Shown here: positions 3,765-64,000 of the stretch, in pieces | Layout of the letters: every line of letters starts with the position of its first letter | Position numbering within the stretch: the stretch's first letter is position 1 | The notes under the pieces: generated by a model | Seen by the model: only the letters and a program-made list of their open reading frames with translations | The model's database searches: none | Told to the model about the DNA's origin: nothing | Translations under genes and position numbers: made by a program | NCBI GenBank assembly: GCA_002269645.1 | Contig: NIVC01003616.1 | Location: forward strand, 23,490 to 87,489 | DNA from: Macrostomum lignano | Taxonomy: Eukaryota | Reading direction: 5' to 3' | DNA: 64,000 bases

Positions 3765-6022
3765 TAGTGGCTTGAACTAATTAACCTGGCTATTGGTAAT
3801 TTTATTTGGTTTTACTAAAACATTATTCTCCATTTTATTAGCTTCCCAACCTCTGCTGACGGCCTTTCCGTTAATTTAATAAATAGTCTAATCTTTGTTT
3901 GCAACTCTGCCGAGACTCATTCGACCATATTAGTTAATTAGGATAGAACTGTCAGCTTGAAATTTGTTCGCTTATTCTACTACTGTCTTCAGCAAGTAGC
4001 ATGATAAGAATGCGTACTGTATTAAAATTATTATTATATCCAGTGCCCTAACTATTTATTTTTCAAGTCTTGAACAGAAAGCTTTTGTCTGCAATTTTTC
4101 GAACAGACATAATTAATCGTTAATCGAGGCTTGATAATTTCTCAAATATTTAATTTTGTTTTGCTGTTGTGCGCTGCCGGCAGGATTCAAGCGATTTAAT
4201 GAAATAAATTATTGCACTGTCATTCTGTCTAAAGAAACTACTTTGATAGCGGGGGATCGTAAAGAACTGTAAGTTTAAACTAGACAATGCAGTAAATATT
4301 TGTTATTTTGTTATCAAGTGTTATGATTGATTTTTATTAAAGTACATTGCAAACAGAAGAGAATTTATTGGTAAATAAAGTTAGTCGTTTTAGTAGTAAA
4401 CAAAGAAGAGAAAAAGCATAATAAAAGTAGTTATAACGTAAATATAAAATATTTTATTAAGCATTTTAATACGGAATTTCGCGTGCAATGCATGTGACAA
4501 GCCAGAAAAATGAACAAAAAAATATGTTACGCGGGTATTTTGGACGAACAGAAATTTAAATGGTACCGTAGTAATCAGTAAATTTTCAAGTGCCGGACAA
4601 TTACAGGTGCACAGTTACAGAAGCCAAAATGAAACACTATGTCAACAGCAATATAGCAAAATTATGCATATGATTATATTATTAAAGTTTTTATATTAAT
4701 ATTAAAGTTTTTTTGCTTGACAACAGAAAACGCGAATGGACAAGCAAAGCAAAGCAGTGTCGGAGGTAGCTCTTCCATATCGGTGAAAGGAGAGAAACTG
4801 AGCTTAGAAATATGCAATAATGCATACGAATAATCTAGATATGATTGCTTTGCAAACTAATAAATCTGTGTGTTGATAGCCAGTTAATATAAAATAGTAA
4901 ACTAAGTAAACACCTATAAGATATTATTATCACAGACAACATACGCGTTTGCTAAATAAAGAATGTTTCATAAAAACCTGTCATCAAAGGACAAAAAAGT
5001 GCCGATAGGCAAGGTGTAAAAATATGATTATTAGAACATCAAAAAATAATATGCGCGCATTAGAAGAAATGTGATCCGACAGAGGAGATTGTACTACAAA
5101 TATGAGTAGATATGAAATTATGGAAACTGTATTCGAATAGACTAGATGTATTTTAAAAGCTGCTCGATGGATTGATACGATCCATCTACTCGTACTGATC
5201 AGGAATTCTTCTATCCTGAAAGCTCAACTCCTAGCTGGGCTAAAAGTGGGAAAACAATTCCCGAATTCGAAGACTTCCTGGCCAGCAAACAACTGCCCCC
5301 CCCCCCCTATAAAAACAGAATCGTAAAACTGCACTAAAAACAGACTTATAGCGGAAAATTTTCGTGACTGAATAAAATGCTAGACATTTTAACAACAAAG
5401 CCTCCTCATCGAAATCGTTAACAAGAATTGGAATTCAATGGAATAAGCGAAAATAAACTATAAAGTAAAACAAAACTCGAATGTGTGATTGCAATTGAAG
5501 CTCAAGCAAAAGACAAATATTATAATAATGTTGACTCGCATCGATGCTAAAGGGAATAAAGTTAAAACATTAAAATAAATAAACAAAACAAGCAAAACAT
5601 TAATAAACAATTGTTTAACCAAGTGCTTTTCTATAAAAATTCAGTTTCAGATTTTTATACATAACTTATAGATGTAAAAGTGGCAGACAGAGGAAATCAA
5701 AGTGAAAATTTAGGAATATATAATTAGATAATGCGATGCTTATTAATAATTAATTGACAGCGAGCATGTGTAAACTGAATCAATAATCCCCTCAGTTACA
5801 ATATACATATAACTTAAAAACTATATTTCTTAATCATTGGTAAACTAGAAAAGTAAAACCTCTGTATCTCTTGTAGTTGCTAAGGATAATAATTATATTA
5901 TAATTATGAGCCAAATAAACTAATATAGTGAAGTTTTTGCTTTTATAGCCGAATTAAAATGATTCAACCAACATTGCCATGCAGATAGGCTGTTTCTCAG
6001 TGCCATTGCCGCTGCCATACTA

Positions 6023-20669
<14,647 letters not shown>

Positions 20670-21987
20670 TTTAGAGAACAATATTTGGCTGAGAAGTGAT
20701 CCAGATGCTGAAAAACTAGTTTGAATTAATTTTTAAAACTCTCTAATTGCTAATTATCTCAAAACAAACTGAATAGGAATGTTTATTGCACAATATATTT
20801 GGAGAAATGGAATACTGTCAACAAGATGCAAATTTCTGAATGCGCAAATTGAAGCTGCAATTCATAATAATATTTTTAATTAGCTCGTGTTATCTTAGTT
20901 TCTCTTACAAGCAATCTAGTGATCAAGAAAAAATTATTAAATGAATTATGCAGCAAGACGAAACATATTAATGCAAAAATAATGCTTAAATACATAACAT
21001 TTGTTATAAATAATAATGTTTAAATTGGGAAAGTGCCAGAGTCGCGAGCTGCGACTCTTCCACAATCTATTTCTGACATATAATTACTTTCAGTGCATGA
21101 CTTTTCCAGGGTACAGTCTATCGTATCAGTCGTATCGTAATTTTATCGTAACTAAACCTATTATTAAACTAGGCCTACTAGTCCTAGGCTTCAGCATCTG
21201 TTTAAGACCATGGCACTATCTCTAGACTCTAGCTAGGCGGCTAGGCCTAGCTTAGTTTCTAGAGTTATAGGCTAGGCTAGCAGGCCTACCTTAAGTTGGA
21301 CCTGATGAATTTTTATTGAGTAAAATTGTAGAATTTAGCATTGTAGGCATGTACATTGTAGCATTCTAGTGGGCCTAGGACTAGGTATTGTACGCCCTAA
21401 TCATCCTAGATTCCTCATTCCTAAGCCCATAGCCTATGGCCCTAGGCCTGGCGCCTAGGCCTATGCTATGCAATTGTCAAGTGTAGGCCCTAGTGACTAT
21501 ATATATAGTATATATCATATGTATATACTAGGATTAGGATATAGTGCAATATAATAAGATAGTATAAGATTAGATAAGTCTATGGTGCAAGAAAAAGAAC
21601 ATCTAATACAAATACAAATTACAATAGGGTTTTAATAATTAAACCTTGTTTAAAAAAGGCTTTTAACTAGACTTAGAGTTGTCTTCAATAAATATAGTTA
21701 AGGAATTTAGTAAAGGTCTTAAAACTTATCAATTATACATATATAAAAGATGAAATTTAGAAAAAAATTAGTATATGGATATTGTAACAACTAAATAATA
21801 AACTAGAAAAGAAAAAAACTTTGTTTTTGTTCCTAAAATTTTTTTACATTATATTGATTTGGCTTGTCATTGGGATAATAGCAAACTATAATCTTTTTCA
21901 TAAAAAAGTTTTTTTAACTGTGTCAAAATAGGTACATTAGTAAATTTTAGAAAAAATGGTAAGTTCCAACATTGGCATAGTCATTGT

Positions 21988-22284
21988 CATACATGCGCAA
22001 CCTCCAAAATTCGGTCGGCCATGCGACTTAGTTTTAACAAAAATGCGACGTAGTTTTTGGCCAAAAATGCGACTTAGATGTAAAAAACCCTAAAGCAAAA
22101 TTAACGCAACTTTGGGTAAACGGTAGGAGTAACTATGACTGTATTATTAGGTCAAAATGCCTCGTCAGCTACTTAGTACTACTACTTGGTTATTTTTTCG
22201 GGTGGGCATTTTTGCGACTTCCTTGGTTGGCCGCCAAATCGGTCGGCCGGACCGGCCGACTCGGCCGACTGTTGCGCATGTATG
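21988..22284. mobile_element. 297-bp hAT-type MITE
   Basis: Perfect 14-bp TIRs CATACATGCGCAAC (21988-22001) and GTTGCGCATGTATG (22271-22284). Exact 8-bp TSD GTCATTGT at 21980-21987 and 22285-22292. 8-bp TSDs are typical of hAT (also P/Merlin). Confidence 0.88.
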
Positions 22285-22929
22285 GTCATTGTAAAATACA
22301 AATTCAAAGTAAATTCTTTAAATTGAAATCAGGCATATGACAGCTTCAAGTAAAAAAGGACCATGCTTAAGGATCTAATGGCTAGGCTATCTGTTAAGAT
22401 TCAAACATTACACACAATATATAGGCTACAACAATTTAAGATCATTAACCTATTAGTGCAAGGCTCAGCCCCTGGCCCCCCTGCCATTTACCTCAATGGC
22501 CAGATAGAGAACCTAGCACATGATTTTAAACCAGAGAAGAGGAGAGATTGGAGAGAAGAGAGATTGAAGAAAGGAGTTAAGGGAATAATGGAGAAGAAAG
22601 GAGACAAGAGGATAGATGAAATCAAAGAAGGCAGAAGAGCAAAGAGATAGGAGAGAAGAGATAATAAAGGAAAAGATATAAGAGAGGAGATAAGAAATTA
22701 GAGAAAAGATTGCTTTTGTGGAATTTCAAAGGACCCGAGGGCCAGATGGAGTCTCACCGACCTGAGCTTGCCAACCCCAAGTGTTATTAGATGCATTATT
22801 CCCTTACCTGAGCTTTGATTGTTTGCAAAAAATGACTCAAATAAATTTCATTTGGTTCAGGATTTGTTGATATGCTCTATTTTTTAGCCAACTTATTTTT
22901 TTTTCATGCATGCAGCACAGCCGACAGTC

Positions 22930-25900
22930 ATGACTTCGAGACCAATTGTTACAGTGCAAGCTGCTAAAGAAGGCGAAAAATCTGGCGCCTCACTGGCTCT
23001 GCCATCAGTGTTTCGCGCTCCAATTAGGCCAGACATTCTCAACTTTGTGCACGATCAGATGCGCAAGAACACTCGCCAGCCGTACGCTGTGCACGTCAAG
23101 GCTGGGCATCAGGTACGAACTTTTACCTGTATCTAGGAGATGTTTACTAATCCGTGTCTGTCTGTGATAAGGTAATGGGTCAGTTGAATGTGCTTTCTTT
23201 CTGGCTGGGAGAATTTTAGCAGTGAACTTTCTTTCTAGATGCTAGTACTGATGACAGTGCATTAAAATCAAAGTTAGGCATGCCATTTGATGCAAATACT
23301 TCAAGTTTTTAGTCCATGGCTTAGTGGCATGATAGATGGGGTTACAAATAGTAACATAAATAAATAGGTTTACATAATAGATGACGTAGATAATTGATGC
23401 ATACATGATAGATGAGGTAGATAATTGATGCATACATGATAGATTGATAGTTAAAGTAGATAATTGATGCATACATGGTAGATTGATAGATAAAGTAGAT
23501 AATTGATGCACACATGATAAATGAGGTAGATAATTGATGCACACATGATAGATGAGGTAGATAATTGATGCACACATGATAGATGAGGTAGATAATTGAT
23601 GCACACATGATAGATGAGGTAGATAATTGATGCACACATGATAGAATGAGGTAGATAATTGATGCACACATGATAGATGAGGTAGATAATTGATGCACAC
23701 ATGATAAATGAGGTAGATAATTGATGCACACATGATAGATGAGGTAGATAATTGATGCATACATGATAGATGAGGTAGATAATTGATGCACACATGATAG
23801 ATGAGGTAGATAATTGATGCACACATGATAGATGAGGTAGATAATTGATGCACACATGATAGATGAGGTAGATAATTGATGCACACATGATAAATGAGGT
23901 AGATAATTGATGCATACATGATAAATGAGGTAGATAATTGATGCATACATGATAAATGAGGTAGATGATTGATACTCTGAGTCTGAAACTGTTCATAAAA
24001 ATTGGACATCTGTGGAGATGCCACATGGCATTCGCGTAGATCACCGGCACCCAAAGAATCCCAGCTATGCACCATGACTCACCGACTGACAATCGCACGC
24101 TCACTCCCACGCACACTGCCGCAGGTGTCCGCCGAGTCCTGGGGCACCGGCCGGGCAGTGGCTCGTATTCCGCGCGTCCGCGGCGGCGGCACCAGCCGCT
24201 CAGGTCAGGGCGCCTTCGGCAACATGTGCCGCGGCGGTCGGATGTTCGCGCCAACTAAGACTTGGCGAAAGTGGCACCGGCGGATCAATGTTCAGCAGCG
24301 TCGGTTTGCTGTGGCATCAGCCATTGCTGCCACTGGTGTTACTAGTCTGGTGATGGCGAGAGGTGAGTCGACCTGGTTGCAGACCGTTCTAAGAGATTCT
24401 CATTAAGTAAAATATTAGAGGCTAGGGTTGTTAGGGTCTAGTTAGTTAGGGGCAGGGGGGCTGTGAGAAGACATTGCCACGTTCATTACTGCCTATTCCG
24501 CCGACTCCCCTAAACAGGCAGTCATTCGCATTGGCCAATACTCGCACAGGAGTGTACAGCGGCCCTAACTTTATTTAGTGTTAATTACACGAGCAGAGCC
24601 AAGCTGAGATCCCAATTTAGACTCGAATTAATATGACTGCACTTGTAGTCGAGCCTGGGCCACTGGCACATAACAGCAGTTTAGAGGTTTGAGTTCAGCT
24701 ATTAGGGTAGTTTTAAGATCATCTAAAACAGTTTTGAGCTAATATTAAGGTAGTTTTGATGCCCAGTTATTAGGATAGTTTTGAGGTCAGTTGCCAGGGT
24801 AGTTTTAAGGTCAGTTGTTAGGGTAGTTTTGAGGTCAGTTGTTAGGGTAGTTTTAAGGTCAGTTGTTAGGGTAGTTTTGAGGTCAGTTGTTAGGGTAGTT
24901 TTGAAGTCAGTTGTTAGGGCAGTTTTGAGGTCAGTTGTTAGGGAATTTTTGAAGTCAGTTGTTAGAGCAGTTTTGAGGTCAGTTATTGGGGTAGTTTTGA
25001 GGTCAGTTGTTAGGGTAGTTTTGAGATCAGTTGTTAGGGCAGTTTTGAGCTCAGTTGTTGGGGTAGTTTTGAGGTCAGTTGTTAGGGTAGTTTTGAGGTC
25101 AGTTGTTAGGGCATTTTTGAGCTCAGTTGTTGGGGTAGTTTTGAGGTCAGTTGTTAGGGTAGTTTTGAGGTCAGTTGTTAGGGCATTTTTGAGCTCAGTT
25201 GTTAGGGTAGTTTTGAGGTCAGTTGTAGGGTAGTTTTAAGATCAGTTTTAAGGGCAGTTTTGAGGTGGTCAGTTAGGTAGTTTTGAGCTCAGTTAGAGTC
25301 ATATTTTGTGCTAAGGTGTCGGTAGACCTTTAGCCGCAGCTCCCCTCCCCGGCCGGCAGGTCATCGCATCGAGAAGATCAGCGAGGTGCCCCTAGTAGTG
25401 AGCGACTCGGTCCAGGACCTGAAGAAGACTAAGGAGGCCGTCGCATTTCTAAAGCGCGTGAAGGCCTGGCCTGACATTCAGAAAGTGTACGCCAGCCAGC
25501 GCTTCCGAGCCGGCAGAGGTAAAATGCGCAATCGAGCTCGGATTCAGAAGCGCGGTCCGCTAGTGATCTATGCCAAGGACAATGGACTCTGTCGGGCGTT
25601 TCGCAACATCCCCGGCGTCACTTTGATCTGCGTTAGCCGGTTAAACCTGTTGAAACTGGCCCCTGGCGGTCACCTGGGCCGATTTGTGATCTGGTCTGAG
25701 TCGGCCTTCCGTCAGTTGGATCAGATCTACGCCAAGTCTAAATTGCCGGACAATAAGATGGCTAGCACAGATCTGACTGGTATTCTGCGCTCGGACGAGG
25801 TTAAAGCCGCTGTCAGGCCTAGGCAGGCTCGGCAAGCTCGGGCTGTGCTCAAAAAGAATCCTTTGAAGAATGTGAACGTTATGGCTAAGTTGAATCCCTA

Positions 25901-33929: not shown

Positions 33930-49635
<15,706 letters not shown>

Positions 49636-52729: not shown

Positions 52730-53356
52730 TCCTAATAGGAGTGATCCTTAGGGAGCTAATAGAAGTGATCTATAGGGAGCTAATAGGAGTGATCCCTAAA
52801 GGGAGCGAGTAGGAGTGATCCTTAGGGAGCGAGTAGGAGTGATCCTTAGGGAGCGAGTAGGAGTGATCCATAGGGAGCGAGTAGGAGTGATCCTTAGGGA
52901 GCGAGTAGGAGTGATCCTTAGGGAGCGAGTAGGAGTGATCCTTAGGGAGCGAGTAGGAGTGATCCTTAGGGAGCTAATACTAATAGGAGTGATTCTTAGG
53001 TAGCTAATAGGAGTGATTCTTAGGTAGCTAATAGGAATGATCCTTAGGTAGCTAATAGTAGTGATCCTTAGGTAGCTAATAGTAGTGATCCTTAGGTAGC
53101 TAATAGTAGTGATCCTTAGGTAGCTAATAGTAGTGATCCTTAGGTAGCTAATAGTAGTGATCCTTAGGTAGCTAATAGTAATGATCCTTAGGTAGCTAAT
53201 AGTAGTGATCCTTAGGTAGCTAATAGTAATGATCCTTAGGTAGCTAATAGTAGTGATCCTTAGGTAGCTAATAGTAATGATCCTTAGGTAGCTAATAGTA
53301 GTGATCCTTAGGTAGCTAATAGTAATGATCCTTAGGTAGCTAATAGTAGTGATCCT
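52730..53356. repeat. 24-bp minisatellite with two variant blocks (TAGGAGTGATCCTTAGGGAGCGAG / TAGTAGTGATCCTTAGGTAGCTAA) abutting the Polinton end
   Basis: Tandem units read directly. Confidence 0.93.
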
Positions 53357-53624
53357 AGTAGTATAGAAAAAGACGCTTCTAGACCCAGAGCACTTTTTTA
53401 ATGACCGTTTTAAGGGTCTAGAGGGGGGACACGGGGGGTAAATAAAAAAACACATCTAAACACCATTAATACATCTAATCACCCATAATCACCCCTAACA
53501 ATAAAAATCACTTCCCAACACTTCCAAACACTCCCCAACACCCCCCTCGCGTCCCCCCTCTTAAGACCTTACAAACGGTCATTAAAATAAGGTCTGATCT
53601 AGAAGCGTCTTTTTCTATACTACT
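53357..53624. repeat. Terminal palindrome: 27-bp perfect outer inverted repeat, about 85-bp imperfect arms, about 100-nt loop
   Basis: AGTAGTATAGAAAAAGACGCTTCTAGA (53357-53383) pairs with 53598-53624. Inner 15-bp (53396-53410/53573-53587) and 10-bp (53421-53430/53551-53560) perfect blocks. Confidence 0.95.
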
Positions 53625-54100
53625 ACTCTACCCAACACTTCCAACACTTCCAACACTTCCAACACACCCCAACACTTCTAACACTTCAAATTCTCTATAA
53701 CCCCTCGCACGCGCCGCAGGCGCGAAGGGGCACAGTCTGACCCAAACTGAGTCATAGAAAAGGAACAGTGTTTAACTATCTTAAAGCAGCTCACAAAAAG
53801 AAAAACTTTGCATGATCACCCCAAAGGGTCGCAGACAGTATAATGACTAACGTGGGAATTCGGGGTTTCTATTATACTCATCAATTACCGAAGCGCAAAC
53901 CTCAGACTCAAACTGGCTACAACAGGAAGGTGAGTTGCTTACTCATGAAAAGCGCTTTTATTATTTTCAGCACTCCACCCCAAGCTTTAATTGTGTGTAT
54001 AAGAATGATGAAATCTAAAAAACTAGCCACAGCAAATAGTCTCTTATTTATGCACAACTCCTAATATCTGTCTTTTACAAGAACTAACAAACGTATTATC

Positions 54101-54988
54101 ATGGCATCATCGAAAGAAGCAAGGATATCATCTATTGTCGAGATTGCTACGAATTTATCAAGGAAGGATAAGTCATTAATTGGTTGCCGACTTAAAGACT
54201 TCTCGGAGAAGGAATTGGAGGCCTTACATGATAGTTTAGAAAAGTTGGATGGGGTGAGTGAAAAGAAGCCGACCACCCAAAAGAGGAAAGAGAAAGGTTA
54301 TGTGGAGAATGTGCTAGAGACAATCTATCAGAAGTTAGAGGAGAACGAAGATAGAGGAGTTAGTGTGTGCGTGGAAGCGATTACACAAGGCCTATCCCAC
54401 GTTGGTCTCAAGCTTGAAGGTACGACCAAACATGATTTGATTGAAAGATTTAAGAAAATAAAGTCATCTATTGAAGCTCTATCGATTGCTAAGGCAATGA
54501 TGCAATTTGAGCAGGGTAGACTTATCTACTATTTAAGCACGAAGTATCGAATGACAGAGCGAGAGCTGGCCGACTCATTCAACATAACCAGCCGGAAGGT
54601 TGAGGATTATAAAAAATACTATCAACTCTGCCTTGAATACCCAGGTTTAATTTTTTCTACCTATTCAATGGGCATAGTAATTAATTATAGTGCTGCGATT
54701 TGCAAGAAGGCAAACAACGATGCCAGGTTTAAGGAACTTCTCAAGATGCAACACGAGACAGTTGCTTTGGTTTTGAAAGATGGCAGTCCTGAAGAAAAGC
54801 AAGTTCACCAGTGGTATGAAGACAGTAAGTGATTGCTTCACTATTGTGGTAATGTAAGTAAGTTCATATTTTTTAAAGCTTGCTTTTATATTGTAGCTTT
54901 CAACGAAGATCCTGACGCGGAAGACAAAGCTGAGAGCGCCGCCGAAGTCCGAGAGATGTTCGAAGGAGGAAAATGGGTTAAGAAGTAA
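54101..54988 (+). CDS. Putative HTH DNA-binding protein of the element, probably with a 72-nt intron (271 aa spliced; 243 aa unspliced)
   Basis: HTH-like MTERELADSFNITSRKVEDY. Donor GAC A|GTAAGT (54825) and acceptor TTTTATATTGTAG (54896); phase-1 join opens a 30-codon acidic exon ending in TAA at 54988. Confidence 0.7.
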
Positions 54989-55042
54989 ATAATTTGCGTG
55001 CTATTTCCATAACTATTAAACTGACAATCTTTTTAGTGTATA

Positions 55043-55143
55043 CATGAATTTTTCTCATAGCTTAGAAAAAATCATGTGTGTGTGTGCACCAAACTCTTTT
55101 AGTGTATACATGATTTTTTCTAAGCTATGAGAAAAATTCATGT
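55043..55143. other. Two inverted 34-bp sites with 13-8-13 (loxP/FRT-like) architecture
   Basis: 55043-55076 CATGAATTTTTCT-CATAGCTT-AGAAAAAATCATG is the exact reverse complement of 55110-55143. Each is preceded by the direct repeat TCTTTTTAGTGTATA. Confidence 0.85.
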
Positions 55144-55149
55144 GCTGTT

Positions 55150-55276
55150 ATAGACACAATGCACCGAGGACAGAGAGAAAAATGGCCATTCATCGAATAA
55201 AAAGCGTCCATTGTGCTCCAGCGGAGCAGGCCATTTGTGCCATCGGGCACAGCCCGCGAACCATAGGTTCATTTTT
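55150..55276. other. GC-richer structured non-coding segment with three tandem perfect hairpins followed by T5
   Basis: TGCTCC-agc-GGAGCA (55214-55228), TGTGCC-atcg-GGCACA (55236-55251), GAACC-ata-GGTTC (55258-55270). Confidence 0.5.
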
Positions 55277-55431
55277 GGATAGAGAATCTTTTGTGTTTGC
55301 GTCTTCTTTATTTTCTATACAAAAAAGAGTAAAAAAGAGCTATAAAATAAAATCGCTCGAGATGCTTGCACACTACCCTTTTCTTTAGTGTCTGCAACTT
55401 AATTTTTCTGTTACTAAAAAAAGAACAAAAA

Positions 55432-55842
55432 ATGACACACGTTACACATATGCAAAATCTGAACGAATTGCAGGTAGGAGACCCAGTTGAATACCGAGGT
55501 GAGGGTCTTTTTGATGTGGTTGGTACAGCAGCGAATTTCGTTAAAGACAATATGGGTCTTATAGGCCAAGCAGGCTCTGCAGCAGGTTCTATAACAAACG
55601 CTGTAAAGGGCGGAATCGAAGCAGCGAGGGCAGTAGAAGAACTAAAGAAATTGAGAGAATTTAACGACACCCTCTCACAAATAAAAGCAATAAAAGATTT
55701 GAAACTAGCGCAGGAAACAACTCAAGCCGCACAACCAACAGAAACCCCCACGAAAAGCACACCAATAAGTAATAAAGATATTCAGGATTTTAATAAAATG
55801 TTAACCACAATTAAAGGCGGAAAAGGATTAAAGAAATTTTAA
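55432..55842 (+). CDS. Virion core/membrane-lytic protein candidate (adenovirus pVI-like amphipathic helix)
   Basis: 136 aa; YRGEG then LFDVVGTAANFVKDN amphipathic helix; VKGG and IKGGKG resemble adenain cleavage sites. Confidence 0.6.
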   Translation: MTHVTHMQNLNELQVGDPVEYRGEGLFDVVGTAANFVKDNMGLIGQAGSAAGSITNAVKGGIEAARAVEELKKLREFNDTLSQIKAIKDLKLAQETTQAAQPTETPTKSTPISNKDIQDFNKMLTTIKGGKGLKKF

Positions 55843-55852
55843 CAATATAAAA

Positions 55853-56812
55853 ATGGACTCAGTTAATGACGAAAAACGGCTATATTTTATAGGAGAAATT
55901 GTAGATACTTTAAATCTAGACGATAATAAACATAGTCACGCAATGTTAAAAAGATTGGATCGCTTAGGCAAAAAATTTGACTACGACATCAATACATTTA
56001 AACTTGCTGCGAAATATGCACAAGAAGGAAGACCAATATCCTTTAAGAATCATGGTAGAAATTATAGGCTGACAGACTCCGATGTAAAATTTTTATTGGA
56101 GACTCACACTAAAAAGGACGGCGGGTTGTTACCCATTTTACCAATTCTTTTAGGACTTGGGGCAGCTGGAGCAGCTGGTTTAGCAGGAAAAAGAATTCAT
56201 GATAACATAAAACAGTTAGGAGAATTAAAAGCAAAAGAAGGGGGTATATTACCCCTCGCAACTTTGCTCCCAATAATTTTTGCAGGAATTGGAGCAGCTG
56301 GAGGAGTCGCTGGAGGAGCGGCTGGAATTGCAAAAGCAGTAAATGACAAAAAAGCCGCGGATGAAAAAGCCAAAAGAGAGGCCGAATTTCAAAGACAGCA
56401 AATAACACAGGACGCACAATTCAAACAAAAACTTATAGATACCATTAATAGTAGTTCAGCAACAGCAGAGCAAAAAAGAAATGCAGAAGCTAAATTAGCA
56501 GCTGGAAAAGGTTTAATTTTAAAAGGAACAACCCAAGGAAGTGGAGTTGTCGCAGATAAACTACATGAATTTGGCCAAACTTTAGAAAAAACGGGTGAGA
56601 AAGCTAAAGGATTTTTTGACAATATTGGATCCAATTTTAGACCAGCTGTTCAGAAAATTTTTAATAAATTAGGAAAAGATTTTAACATCATTGAAAAACA
56701 CGACGGAAGCGGATTATATCTCGAAATGCGACCAAAAGCAGGTTCAGGAATTTTCTTAAATTCAAACGTTATGGGAAATGGATTGCTATTACCAAAAGCA
56801 GATCTCGAATAG
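55853..56812 (+). CDS. Adenovirus pX(mu)-like core polyprotein with repeated Gly-flanked cleavage motifs
   Basis: GGILPLATLLPIIFAGIGAAGGVAGGAAGIAKAV closely resembles the adenovirus pX C-terminus. A second GGLLPILPILLGLGAAG segment and repeated GxG-hydrophobic motifs are present. Confidence 0.7.
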   Translation: MDSVNDEKRLYFIGEIVDTLNLDDNKHSHAMLKRLDRLGKKFDYDINTFKLAAKYAQEGRPISFKNHGRNYRLTDSDVKFLLETHTKKDGGLLPILPILLGLGAAGAAGLAGKRIHDNIKQLGELKAKEGGILPLATLLPIIFAGIGAAGGVAGGAAGIAKAVNDKKAADEKAKREAEFQRQQITQDAQFKQKLIDTINSSSATAEQKRNAEAKLAAGKGLILKGTTQGSGVVADKLHEFGQTLEKTGEKAKGFFDNIGSNFRPAVQKIFNKLGKDFNIIEKHDGSGLYLEMRPKAGSGIFLNSNVMGNGLLLPKADLE

Positions 56813-56896
56813 GCTCCTGGGGGGAGGGTCTGGACACCAAAAACACAAAATTAAAAAATCAATAATTCAAACATTATATAAATTTTATTCTATAAA

Positions 56897-59800
56897 ATGG
56901 AAGCAATTTTAGCTCAAATCGACAACCCTGAACTTAGAGCACAATTAATAGCTCAAATCGATGCACAACGAATTGCCGATAGGGCTGAAATAGAAGCAAG
57001 AATTAGGGCAGAAAATGAGATACGTTTAGAAAGACAATTAAATGATATTAATAACCCCCAACCACAAGGACAAAATGGAGCTGAAGTAATATATATAGAT
57101 ATAGATATAAATACAAATTATAAAGAATATTTTAAACAAATGAAAGATAAATTAAAGACTATATTAAACAATTATACTATAAGGCCAAATAACAAACGAC
57201 AGCCAATTAAGTATAAAATAGAAGTTGAAACAGAATTTAAAAAACCAAATATTCTTAATGCAAATTCAGAAATTGAAGTAATAAATAACTTTTCACAAGA
57301 ATCATATAAAACATTATTATCAATGGGAAATTACAACAATCAATTCGATCAAATAGAAGCTGAGTTTGATGAATGGATAGATAAGATGACAGAAAACGGA
57401 TCTGGGTTTATATTTGTATCCTGTAATTCAGCAATAGTAAAGATTGCACCTATAGAAATTCTTAAAGGACGATCACATATGAAGCTCAAATTTAAATCAC
57501 CTATGATTATAAATCCAGACAATAAAGATAATAAATGTTTATTATGGTGTTTATTAATTCATAAATATCACAATCAAGTAGAATCACACATTAATAAAAT
57601 ATATAATTATAGACAATATGAGGATGAAATAATAATGAAAAACATATCATACCCAGTAGCAATAGATGATATATATAAGATTGAAAAAATGAATGGTTTA
57701 AATATTAATGTGTTTACAATTGAAGAACCAAAAGATCTAGAAGAAATTTTAACCGATCCAGAATGGTATAAGAAAAGGTGTTATCTTGTTAAGCCAGCAA
57801 CTGATATAACAGCACCAGATCAAATCGATCTTTTGTACATGCAGCGCGAAAATGAAACACATTATATATACATAAAAGATATTAGTTCTTTTTAAGAGAA
57901 AATAGAAATAGATATCCACTATGTAGAAATTGTTTTACATTTAAAAAGGATGAAACAGCTCTTAAAAACCACCAACGATTTTGTTTAGATCACAAATTTA
58001 CTAATGCTATAATGCCAGCATCTGAAGATGCAACCCTAAAGTTCCAACAACATTATATGGCAGTTAAAAAACCAATAGTAATATATGCTGATTTTGAAGC
58101 AACAAATGTTCCCTTAAAAGAATCACAGACGGTATCTGATGACGGTGATCGTGCAAAGCACGCGACCCTACGGGACGAATGCACAAAAAAATTGGCACAA
58201 CAGTTTCCGAATAGTTATTGTATATATGTACACTCTGTAGCTGATCATATATTTAAATCAAGGATGATTACTTACCACGGTAATGATGCAGCTAAGCACA
58301 TGGCAGAATCATTAGTAAATGTATTTGAATATATTCAAAATCAATATGATAAATTATCAAAAAATATTAATATGACAAATAAGGATAGAGACAATTATAA
58401 AAATGCAACAAATTGTTTTATGTGCAAAAGACATTTAAGTAAGAATAATAAGATACGAGAACATTGTCATCTAACGGAATTATCGAGGGGCAGCATGTAG
58501 ATCATGTAACGCAAAAGAAGGAAAAGGATGTAAGGAAATACCAGTATTTTTTCATAATGGTTCCGGATATGATTTTCATTTCTTAGTTCGAGAATTGCTT
58601 CATTTAGGAAAGGATGAATATGAAATAAATATATTACCTAAAACATCAGAAAATTACATATCAATAACATATGGTAAGAAATACTCCCATCTAGTTTTTC
58701 TAGATTCCTTGAGATTCTTATCAACATCTTTAGCAAATGTTGTTTCATCATTAGTTCCAAAACCATGGGATTTAGAAATAGTAAAGAAAAACTTTCCAAT
58801 CTATTGAATCGTTTCAAAAAAGAAAAACTATCCGAGGAAGAACTAATGCTATTAACTCGTAAGGGCATCTATCCATATGAATATGTAACATCTGAAGACG
58901 TATTTTCTCATACCGAATTACCCCCAATTGATAAGTTTTATTCCACATTATCACAAACAAATATAAGTGAATCGGATTATGAACACGCTCAAAAAGTATG
59001 GAAATATTTTAATTGTAAAACATTTAAAGATTATCATAATCTATATCTTAAAGCAGATGTTCTCCTATTAGCTGATGCATTTGAAAACTTTAGGAATCAT
59101 ACATATGAGAATTTTAAAATTGATCCCGCATATTGTTTCAGTGCACCGGGATTAACATGGGCTTGTGGTTTGAAATACACAGATGTTAAGATTGATTTAC
59201 TAACTGATCATGATATGTTGTTAATGATTGAGAGAGGAATTCGCGGTGGATTCTCGGGTGTACTAGGAGATAGATATACTAAAGTAAATAATAAATATCT
59301 ACCAAATTATAATAAAAAAGAAAAATCATCATATGTATTATATCTAGATGCAAACAATTTATACGGTGGTTGTATGAAACAAAAATTACCAATAGCTGAT
59401 TTCCAATGGGAAGATGACCCCGATTATTACAAAAATATTCCCGAAGGAAGGGGCTGTATTGTAGAGTGGATTTGCAATATACTCGGGAAGCAAAAGCAAA
59501 AACATATAAATATCCTTTAGCTCCAGAGCATTGTTCAGTTAATGAAGATGATTTATCACAAACACAAAAAGATTATCTTAAAGTAGATAATGCAAAACAT
59601 CTAGCAACAAAAAAATTAATATTAAATTTACATGATAAGAAAAACTATGTAGTGCATTATAAGCTTCTACAATTTTATGAAAAGCAGGGATTAAAAGTGT
59701 CTAAAGTACATCGAACAATATCGTTTATTGAGGAAGATTGGTTAGCTAAATATATTGACTTTAATTCAAATCAGAGACAGATGTCAAAAACAAATTTTGA

Positions 59801-60886
59801 GAAAGATTATTGGAAATTAATGAATAATGCTTTTTATGGAAAAACGGTTGAAAATATTAGAGATAGAACCCAATTCCATTTAGAAAAGGATATTGATAAA
59901 GCAAAGAAATATTTCTCAAAACCTAACTTTAAAGACTTTATAAAATTTGATGATAACTTTATGGGTATTCATATGAGAAATAAAACAACAAAATTTCTTA
60001 AACCAATATTTATTGGAATGGTTGTTTTAGATTTGCAAAGCTAGTAATGTATGAATACTATTATGATGTTATAAATAAAACATGGCCAGATAACTATCCA
60101 ATATATGCAGACACCGACAGTTTGGTATTTAAGGTTGAAACAGATGACCGGACGGAGTCCGCGAACCAAAGGTTCGATGTCTATAAAGATATGGAAAAAA
60201 TTAAGGATACATTGGATACCTCCGACTATCCGGATAACCATCCTTTAAAATCAGATCAAAATAAAAAAGTTGTACTTAAAATGAAAGATGAATTAAATAG
60301 CAAAATCATAACCGAGTTTATAGCAATAAGATCAAAATGCTATGCATTTAAGGTTTTAGGACAGGAGGGAGAGGTAAAAAAAATAAAAGGGGTATCAAGA
60401 GCAGCAGTAAAAAAGATAACATTTGATGATTATAAAAACGTACTTTTAGATTACCTTAATACAATTGAAAATTATCATGCTCCACAATATCGATTAAATT
60501 CAGATAAGCATCAGATGTTTGTCATCGAGACAGATAAAAAAACATTAAGTCCATTTGATGATAAAAGATATTTAGATGATAAAATTAAAACATATCCATA
60601 TGGTTTAAAAGAAGAGATAAAAAATATGATAAAAGATAAAAAACAAAAAGAAGATATAATAAGTAAATATAATGAATACAAAGCGGCAATAAATAATTAT
60701 TATTACGATTGTGATTGTGAATCCGAATGTGATTGTGAATATAATACATTTCTAGAATATGAAAAAGATATAGATAATTATTATTCAACATTTCCAAAAG
60801 AACTTAAAAAATTAAATAAGGAAAAAGTCTTGAATAACTGGAAGAGATTAACAGAAAAATTACTTATCGGGTCTGTAAAAAACTAA
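56897..60886 (+). pseudogene. Protein-primed family B DNA polymerase (pPolB), split by 5 frameshifts in this assembly
   Basis: N-terminal ENGSG / NPDNKDNKC / HYIYIKD region, C2H2 finger, IYADFE (Exo I), EndoVII-like EHCH..RG..C..CN, FHNGSGYD (Exo II), YLDANNLYG, KLMNNAFYGK, YADTDS and PFDDKRY. Confidence 0.95.
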
Positions 60887-61219
60887 AGCATGTAATTGTT
60901 TGAGCAAATCATTAACTTCAATTTCATATATTATTGAGCACCAATTATCCTCACAGTCGGCAGGGTAACTTAAACAATCCTTTATTTTTTTCCTAAGTTT
61001 TTTTATTTTTCTAACCAATCTATCTATTTCAATTTCAATTACTATTTCAGCATAAACAATATCTTGTCTTAAAAAACGTTTTCTTTTATCTATCTCATAT
61101 CGGATGGGAAACATATCGTCCCCATACTCATGATATTTCTGAGATATAATTATATTTATTTTTTTATTAATATCATTAAGTTCACGCTCTTTAGTGATAA
61201 GGATTTTTATCGTATCCAT
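60860..61219 (-). CDS. Hypothetical coiled-coil protein of the element (119 aa)
   Basis: Intact ORF with an A-rich start context, convergent with and overlapping the pPolB end. Confidence 0.55.
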   Translation of the reverse strand: MDTIKILITKERELNDINKKINIIISQKYHEYGDDMFPIRYEIDKRKRFLRQDIVYAEIVIEIEIDRLVRKIKKLRKKIKDCLSYPADCEDNWCSIIYEIEVNDLLKQLHALVFYRPDK

Positions 61220-61234
61220 TTTCTTATAAAAAAT

Positions 61235-61566
61235 TTAGTCTTCGTCGTCATCCTCCCAAACAGCCGCCAATTTTACAGTCCTATCACTCTTTTATTATTT
61301 GTTTGTTTTAGTTTAAATTGCAATCCACCCTCGTTGCAGTATTTCATAACAAACGCTTTAGGTTTATTAATAACTAAAACAGGAAAATTTTTAACATCAT
61401 CTCCGCTTAGACATAAAATTTTTTGCCCATCTAATTGTAAAAATATTGATTGAAGCCCAATAAATTTAACCTGTCTCAAACATACAATATTATATTCTTT
61501 ATTCTCCAACATATTGGGTGTGAGATAATTAATCACATTAGAATCGGTTTTGAACCAGCTCTCCAT
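61235..61566 (-). CDS. Small beta-rich protein, possibly ssDNA-binding; acidic tail after a 1-nt frameshift
   Basis: 97-aa ORF; adding 1 nt near 61275 extends it to KLAAVWEDDDED-stop (61237-61235). Confidence 0.45.
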
Positions 61567-61592
61567 TTTTAATCTAAAAAAATAATAAAAAA

Positions 61593-62053
61593 ATGAAAGA
61601 CATTTATGTTTGTAATAAATGTAATGTGACTATGCACAGAGGGCAAACAGCAAACGGAGATATATATCATATGTGTTATTCATGTTCTAAAATATATCAA
61701 TTTGAAAAAACAAAAAAGATTGAAAACTCATATTACTATTTTAAAAAACAATTTTAAGAAATCTTACAAGAGACATTTCTGATCCAATTTTAATTCCCGG
61801 AAATAATGTTTATTTATATAATAACTTTTTCCATTTAAATAAAGGAAAGGGATTAAGTTCGAAAGACTCCGAAAGGATTTTAATTTTAGTTGGATATTAT
61901 TTCAATTTTCTTATTCGAGAGAATACAAAGTTTATAAGGATAGGTAACATACCTAACGAAATGTTACTGAAAAAGTCATTGGAATTTTTATGTATTGATA
62001 AAAAATTTAAACCTAGATCAGAAGAGAGTTACCACTTTGGGAAGAATATATAA
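61593..62053 (+). CDS. Zn-ribbon protein (CxxC-x17-CxxC), below the track cut-off; about 153 aa if one A is restored at about 61745
   Basis: MKDIYVCNKC...HMCYSC to TAA at 61757; the -1 frame stays open to TAA at 62053. Confidence 0.55.
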
Positions 62054-62070
62054 CATATGCATTAGAAAAA

Positions 62071-62726
62071 CTAAACAACCTGAAGTTCTACCGCACTTCC
62101 TGACCGCGGGCTTTGTGCCCCAGTAGCAATAGTTTCAGGTTCGTAAATGCCTAATGTTTCTATCGGTGGAGCTTTGGGTTTATCGAGTCTCAACTCTTTT
62201 AATTCCATATCGGTAAAAGTTTCAACATCTAAAATTCTATTTCTATCTTTTAAATATTTTTCATATAATTCAACCGCGGTTGATAATTCATGAATCGTTA
62301 TCTCTCCGTCATCCAATATTTTTTGCACATATAAATATAATTGATTTTTATATTGCTTGGCAACATCTCTTAATGATTTATATTTTTCCTTTCTTTTTTT
62401 AAGATATAATTTAATTGCTAAAAGTATTGATAAGTTCTGATCAATTCAAAACCTGATATTGAGCCAATTGAAATACCTAAAAATAATTGAGATAAATTAA
62501 GAGTTGGAATAGATTGTAAAATACCTAAAACGATTACACATAACATTGATAAGCTTCCAAATCCAATATTGAAAAAGTCCATATTTCTTATATGGTTTGA
62601 AATTCTTCTTACTTTTTTAGTATATAAACCATAATCATAATTTATTCGATCAACATTACTTAACATCTGACCTTTACGTTGGTTGAACCGGTCGCGTTCC
62701 CATTTATCTGCTTCAGATACCGACAT
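62071..62726 (-). CDS. Two-TM protein of a type common in Polintons, split by one -1 frameshift at about 62420
   Basis: Two hydrophobic segments, then a basic stretch and LDDGEITIHELSTAVELYEKY in the -1 frame. Family recognition is from memory only. Confidence 0.55.
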
Positions 62727-63035
62727 TCTCGTCTATTTTTAATAGCACCAAAATGAATTCCCCACGCTCTTTGGGGATTTGTCCCGAGCTCAATAGGTAT
62801 TGTATTGGAGTTATTCTTTCTTTTTCTCCCATTTAAATCCTATTTTCCAAAACTCTTGAAGTATAATATGATTTTTTAATAACTTAATTAATTCTTGAAG
62901 CTTCTTATTATCCTGAACATTTACAGTACTAAATAAAAATTTGGTATGAGATTTGAATGTTTTTATATTTGATTCTTGTTTAGGAATAGGAATAATAACA
63001 TTATTTTGCCATCGATGGGTTCTACTAAAAGCCAT
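62713..63035 (-). CDS. Hypothetical protein (74 aa; about 107 aa if one A is restored)
   Basis: ORF 63035-62811; the -1 frame is open to TGA at 62715-62713. Confidence 0.4.
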
Positions 63036-63085
63036 TTTATATATAAATATTTAAGGTATCGACTTTCGCGACTTAGGCTTTAGCC

Positions 63086-64000
63086 TTAGGCGATTTCGGT
63101 TTGTGGCCGTTCCAAATATGCGGTCGCAGCAAAATCATATCCTGCTGATGTGCTACCACAAACGGCTGCACACGAATAAAATGTGCGCATCGCTCCTCCA
63201 GTTCGAGCACCAAAACCCATAAGAGTTCCCGTTTTATCTAAATCTCCCCAAGTTCCACTATCATATGTAAAAAAGTTTTGCCCAATTAGCGTATATGTAT
63301 TAGCTGATACATTGTATGTGCTTATTTGATACCAAACTCTTTGATTTAAAATATTAATTTCAAAAAGATGCAATCGCCGTTATCAATATTAGCATAGGTT
63401 ATAGTTTGATCTGCGTCATTAAGAACATCATTACGAGCTGTTGCACCGTCTGATTTTATATTGCTCCAACAACCCCAACTCTATCATGCCATTCACTCGC
63501 AAACACAATCAAGCCGGCGCGGGTTGTTAACCCGGATCCAAATTCACTTGTTGGACGTTCGTGACAATATGCACATAAAACCAAACGTCAGCCACCACTT
63601 CCTGTAGCATTAGCAACTCGGAAATAGAAGGAGGCGGAGATATTACGAAAATGGGTGAAATTAAATTGTACGCTCCAGACCGACCGATGCTTCATCAGTA
63701 ATTCTAGCACCATTTTGATAATCTATATAAGAAGCATCTCCAACAAAACTTCCTGTTGGAAAAATATCGCCGGCGTGGTTGGGTTTTGATACCAGTCCAA
63801 TTGCAAATTACGGCTCGTACAAAGCGCATCGATTGCAGGTATTCCATCCAATTTTATTTTATCATTAAAAGACATTCGCCATCCGCCGTTTGTGTTACTC
63901 GCGTGTCAACATAACCTTTAGTAACAACAGAACTGTTATCGTTTATATTAGAGACATTGGTGATCGTATTGGAACCCATATCAATTGATTGATTAACAAA
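63086..64000 (-). pseudogene. Fibre/receptor-binding-like gene with a ConA-like (L-type lectin/LamG) C-terminal domain, multiply frameshifted, 5' part outside the window
   Basis: Shaft-like IDMGSNTITNV...VVTKGYVD, then ASFYFRV..GSG(G)ADVWF, NGD(W)HLFEINI and MGFGARTGG across several frames. Confidence 0.6.

Follow-up and report, generated by a model that had tools for sequence, protein, structure and literature searches.

The stretch of Macrostomum lignano DNA analysed here, 64,000 nucleotides long and hereafter called the window, contains a decayed element that, judged by its polymerase and its end motif, is a Polinton, and that is capped at its left end by a 268-bp fold-back unit. The end motif of Polintons is given as 5'-(AGT)2 or (AG)3, with AGTAGT as the commonest form in vertebrate Mavericks (accessible text of PMC8097293). 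In the window, the AGTAGT at position 53357 is the insertion border, and the host minisatellite in front of it ends in GATCCT, which is predicted to be the 6-bp target duplication for the element as a whole. The features of the locus, together with the fold-backs found in other elements, are collected in Table 1. The same hexamer as the element tip also occurs in 9 of the 13 last minisatellite units (53044-53356) and in 0 of the 13 first units, which may reflect chance, target preference or conversion.

Table 1. Features around the left end of the Polinton and fold-backs at other loci with a protein-primed B-family DNA polymerase (pPolB)
Feature	Position or length	Strand	Basis or remark
Host minisatellite of 24-bp units, ~26 units, left flank	52732..53356	.	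repeat search, unit list
Outer arm, starting with the Polinton end motif AGTAGT	53357..53439	+	inverted match; differing flanks before 53357
Unpaired 103-nt loop with degenerate 9-10-nt CAACAC-type repeats	53440..53542	+	folding, base composition
Inner arm, an inverted copy of the terminus with AGTAGT on the bottom strand, then an extra ACT at 53625-53627	53543..53624	-	inverted match, folding
CAACACTTC repeat block, G-free, between 5-bp CTCTA repeats	53626..53692	+	repeat search, contigs
GC-rich hairpin with a 6-bp core (53710-53724) and a GCA triloop	53701..53730	+	folding, contig depth
First Polinton ORF, 243 aa from the ATG at 54101 (database form 271 aa)	54101..54832	+	protein match
319-aa ORF; weak match, below threshold, to adenovirus core protein X/mu (E 0.022)	55853..56812	+	profile search
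Broken pPolB in at least 5 ORF pieces	56897..60886	+	PF03175, E 2.4e-6 on one piece
L133 fold-back	129 bp		left of pPolB, past 5.6 kb almost without ORFs; motif at both tips
L049 fold-back	84 bp		right of pPolB and rve integrase; motif at both tips
L055 fold-back	72 bp		right of pPolB; motif at both tips
L027 fold-back, degenerate	137 bp		ahead of the first ORF; nearest pPolB relative of the window in the tree

The right end of the element lies beyond the window, and the part within it spans 53357-64000. The first ORF of this part is 100% identical to the M. lignano protein BOX15_Mlig000052g5, whose gene carries the annotations g1-g7; a second subfamily has 52% identity. No Pfam match to an rve integrase, ATPase, protease or capsid was found among the 15 ORFs in 53357-64000, where the element runs off the window, and 2,615 ORFs from related loci gave 0 tblastn matches outside the pPolB region of that interval. 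Homologues of the polymerase numbered 6,612 at E<=1e-20 among 8,000 scored, and the closest of them mostly carry an Endonuclease VII/HNH-like domain. The closest known elements are Polintons/Mavericks with a pPolB2-type polymerase, which are Beta-adintovirus-like. An HNH insertion has been described for the pPolB2 of nematodes and oomycetes (PMC10748475, accessible text). A scan for sigma-70 promoters and terminators, which are irrelevant to a eukaryotic element, stayed at chance level. Within the Polinton, at 55031-55144, two 48-bp direct repeats lie 66 bp apart, each with a 36-bp imperfect palindrome, and the two palindromes are exact reverse complements of one another, as flip and flop forms; organism B (see below) has one 48-bp unit and the runs X1 and X16 include contigs with an extra one, which suggests an invertible or hairpin-copied site.

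The fold-back unit spans 53357-53624 and carries AGTAGTATAG once forward, at 53357, and once inverted, ending at 53624. Its first 27 bp (53357-53383) are perfectly complementary to 53598-53624, and the complete arms match over ~83 bp at ~85% identity (E 6e-19), with matches per 10 columns inward from the tip of 10, 10, 8, 6, 10, 7, 8, 8 and 5, then random. Matching and folding thus bear out the perfect inverted recurrence of the terminal 27 bp claimed in a previous interpretation made from the letters of the window (the sequence-only reading), and the column counts bear out the alternation of conserved and diverged blocks that it described. Its term palindrome does not fit, since the unit is a fold-back with 83-bp arms around a central 103 nt that is unpaired and has a composition of A48 C36 T19 G0 on the top strand. 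The unit strand has a folding energy of -65.9 kcal/mol (z -15.2; 0 of 200 shuffles equally low). The 20-nt tip pattern, with up to 3 mismatches allowed, occurs at only 2 sites within the window, against 0 expected from 100 shuffles; no further copies of 53357-54100 were found within the window, and the exact 20-nt pattern had 0 matches among the viral, metagenome and prokaryote contigs searched. In silico, the strand that has the terminus as its 3' end also folds, with its last base paired to the inner arm (-79.5 kcal/mol, z -17.6), and this 3' end is predicted to be able to fold back and self-prime in the manner of a parvovirus, in which case extension would copy the body. Taken alone, the 268-bp unit has terminal inverted repeats and lacks coding capacity, and no target-site duplication (TSD) was found around it, GATCCT and ACTCTA (or CTACCC) being alike at 2 of 6 positions, as the sequence-only reading had also stated.

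Repeats and a GC hairpin follow the unit, again in agreement with that reading, and the CCAACACTT array occupies 53632-53687. The hairpin is weak on its own, since its folding (z -2.5) was equally low in 3 of 200 shuffles; contig depth falls just past it, at ~53736. The top strand has no G in the loop (53440-53542) or in the repeat block (53628-53692), so that the strand whose 5' to 3' direction leads to the end is TG-rich and telomere-like, with runs of G. A/C-rich runs also occur after the inner end in L133 and L027. In locus L112, a GC hairpin with a GTA triloop (4523-4552) lies directly outside a AGTAGTATAGA end at the contig tip, so that the same parts as in the window, GC hairpin and end motif, occur there in another order.

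The stretch or part of it is contained in 17 of the 19 listed public sequencing runs (6 studies), 16 of them from organism A and 1 from organism B. Four runs from 4 studies (X1, X16 and X17 from organism A, X6 from organism B) were compared over 53317-55416 on the basis of assembled contigs only. Contigs with differing flanks stop at 53357 in X17 (3 contigs, agreement 0.59) and in X6 (2 contigs, agreement 0.58), which shows that the outer AGTAGT is a real border. A read or assembly chimera was considered and excluded, since the arms differ by 15% and 4 runs from 4 studies cover the unit. One X17 contig passes from the inner end straight to the hairpin (joint 53625 to 53693) at a depth of 878, the depth at single positions of this run being 606-1329 across the unit and 48 in the repeat block, and the same junction is seen as loose contig ends in X1 and X16; free inner ends are therefore not the rule, and the repeat block differs from copy to copy. 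The form that is commonest in X17 has no CAACACTTC block, and organism B has a shorter one. A 159-nt contig of X16 (record 8; 53671-53829, depth 89) bridges the block, the hairpin and the body, and a 1221-nt contig of X6 (record 22) combines 53593-53626, 25 other letters and 53710-54059. The two arms also change together: the middle of the inner arm of an X6 variant agrees with the middle of the outer arm of an X17 variant in ~21 of 26 columns and with the window arm in ~16 of 26, both counted by eye on variants from different copies.

Three organism A runs show a marked excess of the end. Contig depth over 53387-53736 and over 53737-55416 was 4,659-24,610 and 239-911 in X1, 4,893-17,990 and 100-372 in X16, and 857-2,848 and 57-248 in X17, so that the unit with the hairpin reaches roughly 10- to 40-fold the depth of the body, although summed contig depth is not copy number and is inflated by overlapping short contigs. 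The excess is absent in organism B (10-33 as against 21-105), where divergence lowers cover, so that low depth does not mean absence. The single contig at depth 878, set against main body contigs at 57-71, indicates that many ends do not lead into this body, and the excess hints at gene-less derivatives of the end module. Single contigs hold both tips and an unlike middle (joints 53391 to 53587, 53449 to 53590 and 53455 to 53585), and an opposite-strand joint 53389/53699, at depth 69 in X1 and 43 in X17, is possibly a sequence variant. X1 and X16 contigs run past 53734 into shared sequence, in which the body's AAACTGAGTCAT motif is retained. No loose contig end was found behind 53624 among 30 of 201 listed, a search in which flank contigs with a short overlap may be missed, and free 268-bp copies may exist as a minority. 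As far as could be tested, the sequence-only reading's counter-case, a standalone MITE with TSDs, was not found: the TSD is absent and the unit is linked to the body at multi-copy depth. Its view that the unit is no independent mini-element holds for the absent TSD and for the inner end, which mostly continues to the hairpin, and is qualified by the possible minority of free copies; its view of the palindrome as part of the terminus holds for the left end, where the unit is joined to the body in organisms A and B.

The same fold-back design is supported in some other pPolB elements. We collected 168 pPolB loci, with 32 more that were mostly re-fetched contigs, and scanned the 585 ACTACT sites of the 168 loci and the last 12 kb of the window for an anchored inverted partner within 600 bp. 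A score of at least 24 was reached at 9 of the 585 sites as against 0.3% of 2,340 random positions, and a score of at least 40 at 6 sites as against 0 of 2,340. The 9 anchored sites correspond to 5 units, those of the window, L133, L049, L055 and L027; the score of 27 for L027 is within chance alone, ~1.8 such sites being expected among 585. The other four units sit at apparent element ends, each of these loci shows one end only, and no TSD was found around any of the 5 units. For the window and L133, arm identity has its maximum at the tips or close to them; for L049, L055 and L027 it is high across the first 30 columns. L123 and L124, which are relatives of L133, start within the outer arm, and their fold-backs have a different sequence, with own-arm scores of 24 and 23 as against cross-arm scores of 11 and 8 for L133 versus L123; all three share one loop orientation, which amounts to 2 independent cases only.

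Other ends are plain. Among 8 ends with AGTAGT in the outer 60 nt of the contig, an inner inverted copy was present in only 1, L064 being excluded from the plain ends with its motif 51 nt from the contig end; no frequency can be read from this, because fold-backs were sought everywhere and plain ends at contig tips only. None of the 3 loci that have a terminal repeat at each end (L002, L005 and L099) has a fold-back, a new fold-back was present at 0 of the 210 ACTACT sites in the 32 additional loci, and 779 CTCTCT sites gave 2 anchored matches, both in a dispersed repeat of L058. The pPolB of L133 as a single query returned 0 viral loci and 5 loci that were all already in the set. In a quick pPolB tree with a weak backbone (205 columns, 139 rows; L055 and L002 excluded for single alignments below 170 aa), the window groups with L027 (support 97) and L133 with L123 and L124 (99), and L049 stands elsewhere; this tree cannot separate one origin of the fold-back from several.

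Doubled ends may take further forms. L134 has a 367-bp inverted repeat with 76 perfect bp (4288-4654) just after its pPolB, starting with AGCTAG, and is sister to L049 in the quick tree; it lacks AGTAGT and was not counted as a fold-back, and it may be a fold-back end that uses a different motif. In L060 (1-240) the terminal AGTAGT block recurs ~212 bp inward as a direct repeat, and L057 has ACTACT near the tip of its right end and AGTAGT ~130 bp further in; both are other forms of doubled ends. Many contigs in bacterial or archaeal MAG bins (among L107-L168 and L186-L200) carry eukaryote-type pPolB genes, and L133, with its long gene-poor flank, is likely host-animal contamination in a MAG.

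There is good support for inheritance of the 268-bp fold-back as a component of this Polinton lineage's terminal repeat, and the double end is neither a one-off nor mainly a free MITE. With Polintons/Mavericks as described, the element shares the 5'-(AGT)2 end motif, the pPolB gene, chromosomal insertion and occurrence in several copies (PMC8097293 and PMC10748475, accessible parts), and it differs in that described ends have one motif each, whereas this element has another end, facing inward, 268 bp further in. The strings "palindrom-" and "hairpin" have 0 occurrences in the main text, as far as accessible, of PMC8097293, PMC10748475 and PMC8502044, and the accessible portions of 10.1101/2025.02.07.637071, PMC11296320, 10.1101/2024.01.15.575659, PMC12945077 and PMC6431247 hold nothing on such ends. 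The papers found on Macrostomum together with Polinton/Maverick were unrelated. The only close report found, in a search that left aside supplements, Repbase, subscription journals and the founding papers of 2006/2007, is a bioRxiv preprint on Halocafeteria seosinensis (10.64898/2026.07.28.741278), which in its accessible part describes terminal palindromes in endogenous virophages (subtypes 1, 2, 5 and 6) and a PLV (subtype 4). Those palindromes also lie inside the TIR beside the TSD, with hairpin priming proposed, and differ in being 52 nt long and tight (gap limit 10 nt), from a protist and mostly without pPolB (same preprint, in part). The window, in contrast, holds an animal pPolB element with 83-bp imperfect arms, a 103-nt loop and the full motif at both tips. 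From the sequences compared, the double end appears to belong to a minority of pPolB elements, and for these it appears undescribed in the searchable literature.

The fold-back would allow a single strand to close at the end, probably so as to restart or repair copying. Adenovirus panhandles are a parallel to a single strand closed by its terminal inverted repeats. In the standard model of 2006, the two far TIRs of a single-stranded Polinton pair to close it, and the strand is replicated by protein priming (PMC4196379). We propose, by analogy and with about an even chance of being right, that a local mini-panhandle serves protein-primed replication by restoring a duplex origin or mending the 3' end. 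The sequence-only reading had suggested a fold-back or secondary origin, and of its suggestions this is still the favoured one; the recurrence of the design in other pPolB elements, the copy-specific repeat block and the abundance of the end module relative to the body go beyond that reading. Strand displacement by the protein-primed polymerase, or excision of a single strand, would yield a strand with the 3' end ...TATACTACT, and this 3' end would pair with the inner arm 268 nt away. In the resulting mini-panhandle the first 27 bp would match the true duplex end, and the far end, 15-20 kb away, would not be needed; the folded end could then act as a duplex origin for the terminal-protein/polymerase complex and as a fill-in template for a trimmed 3' end. 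Protein priming would copy the end without inverting it, and repeated pairing would keep both tips identical. Geometry, inheritance, recurrence, joint change of the arms and a mostly fixed polarity favour this proposal, and a local duplex tip would explain the peak of identity at the tips, the motif on both arms, the unstructured loop and the fixed-looking polarity. Against it, self-priming from a folded 3' end could continue into the body, and no stop signal was found. The fold-back is in any case not required for Polinton replication, since most visible ends are without it.

The telomeres of Streptomyces (Tap/Tpg) serve as a working analogy only. There, too, the terminus pairs with an inverted copy of itself further inside (Palindrome I with IV), and GNA-triloop hairpins, protein priming and fold-back repair of truncated 3' ends are described, but the replicons are bacterial, have an internal origin and use proteins that are not homologous (PMC5449611). 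Streptomyces repair used a short local hairpin and not long-range pairing (same source, in part), which also speaks against the mini-panhandle. An extension of the analogy, in which a scattered subset of pPolB Polintons would have Streptomyces-like self-contained origins and the ~310-bp module here, made up of fold-back and GNA hairpin, would be a gene-less satellite replicon at ~10x its helper and a minimal element dependent on the Polinton, we regard as unlikely.

Among the rival explanations, the one that survives best takes the inner end as a second integrase site, from which gene-less derivatives, consisting of the unit or of the unit and hairpin, would keep the tips identical. It is the best account of the depth excess, which in X1, X16 and X17 lies far above the twofold expected of a TIR, and the single contigs with both tips and an unlike middle agree with it. 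We nevertheless consider it improbable: 0 of 5 units have a TSD, most inner ends in X17 continue into the hairpin, organism B has no excess (where divergence lowers cover), and it leaves unexplained why gene-bearing elements of other lineages have fold-backs at their ends. It is compatible with the mini-panhandle as a side effect.

Parvovirus and AAV termini provide a second model, as their terminal bases recur inverted further in and their 3' end can self-prime. Their hairpin ends need the Rep nickase and yield flip and flop forms, whereas the polarity in the window looks fixed. If the Polinton end worked in this way, its 3' end would fold and self-prime and a nick would resolve the product; the predicted pairing of the last 3' base, with extension that would copy the body, suits such a course, and the joint 53389/53699 could be a flipped unit. 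Resolution should, however, flip the unit each round, and one orientation dominates (878 as against at most 43 in X17), the unit of organism B has the window's orientation, and L133, L123 and L124 share their loop orientation (2 independent cases). Homologous polymerases have an Endonuclease VII/HNH-like domain, but this nuclease domain is also present in plain-ended elements. A model of this kind was proposed for the palindromic virophage and PLV ends of Halocafeteria, although the palindromes of the preprint go mostly with non-pPolB elements (10.64898/2026.07.28.741278, accessible part). Overall, we hold a parvovirus-like end to be very unlikely here.

The double end might also be a neutral relic, arising from a single ancestral template switch or end fusion and copied along with no role. 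Linear ends readily give rise to inverted duplications, the majority of the Polinton ends sampled are without the fold-back, and the quick tree is compatible with a single origin. Yet the tips are perfect and the inner parts of the arms have diverged by ~15%, the arms change together in variants and relatives, and lengths (72-268 bp) and sequences vary by lineage with the motif staying at both tips. The relic is accordingly highly improbable, and the fusion of two related ends suggested by the sequence-only reading is, as a one-off event, disfavoured by this joint change of both arms.

The least probable of the readings is that the abundant ~310-bp form is a Helentron-type, HINE/DINE-1-like element that was fused to or derived from the Polinton end. 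MITEs and HINE/DINE-1 elements are likewise short, gene-less and abundant with inverted ends, HINEs adding a 3' stem-loop, and HINEs are described with subTIRs of 12-15 bp starting 2-4 nt inside, a 3' subTIR 38-60 bp from the end, a stem-loop within ~35 bp of the 3' end and T-rich or TT targets (PMC4067079, accessible text). The inverted repeats, central short repeats, stem-loop and apparent end ~45 bp past the inner arm in the block-less form resemble this, as does the depth drop at ~53736 just past the hairpin, a putative end. The arms, however, are 83 bp long, start at base 1 and carry the Polinton motif, the left flank ends in CCT, no T run was found after the hairpin, and X1 and X16 contigs pass 53734 into the shared sequence mentioned above; the unit, moreover, differs from MITEs and HINEs in having no TSD and no TT target and in being linked to a Polinton body in two organisms.

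If the mini-panhandle proposal holds, the exit of Polintons from the chromosome and the start of their protein-primed replication, for which the 2006 model still stands (PMC4196379, accessible text), become approachable through a short, testable cis element, the inner inverted end, whose 27 perfect bases mark the likely core origin. The natural variants of 72-268 bp with jointly changed arms are ready comparisons. The doubled end may also account for the origin of gene-less palindromic Polinton satellites, and the inner AGTAGT can cause programs that call TIRs and TSDs to annotate spurious MITEs or misplaced borders.

Elsewhere in the window, 35530-36917 and 41434-42818 form a direct repeat of 1,388 bp (99.4%) that consists largely of a 24-bp array. 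Between its two copies lies a 1,272-aa ORF (37525-41343) with endonuclease, reverse transcriptase and RNase H, that is, a LINE-type ORF with LTR-like long flanking repeats. A 7.4-kb TATC-type array of ~1,865 units spans 9630-17063, and its top strand is G-free over most of its length.
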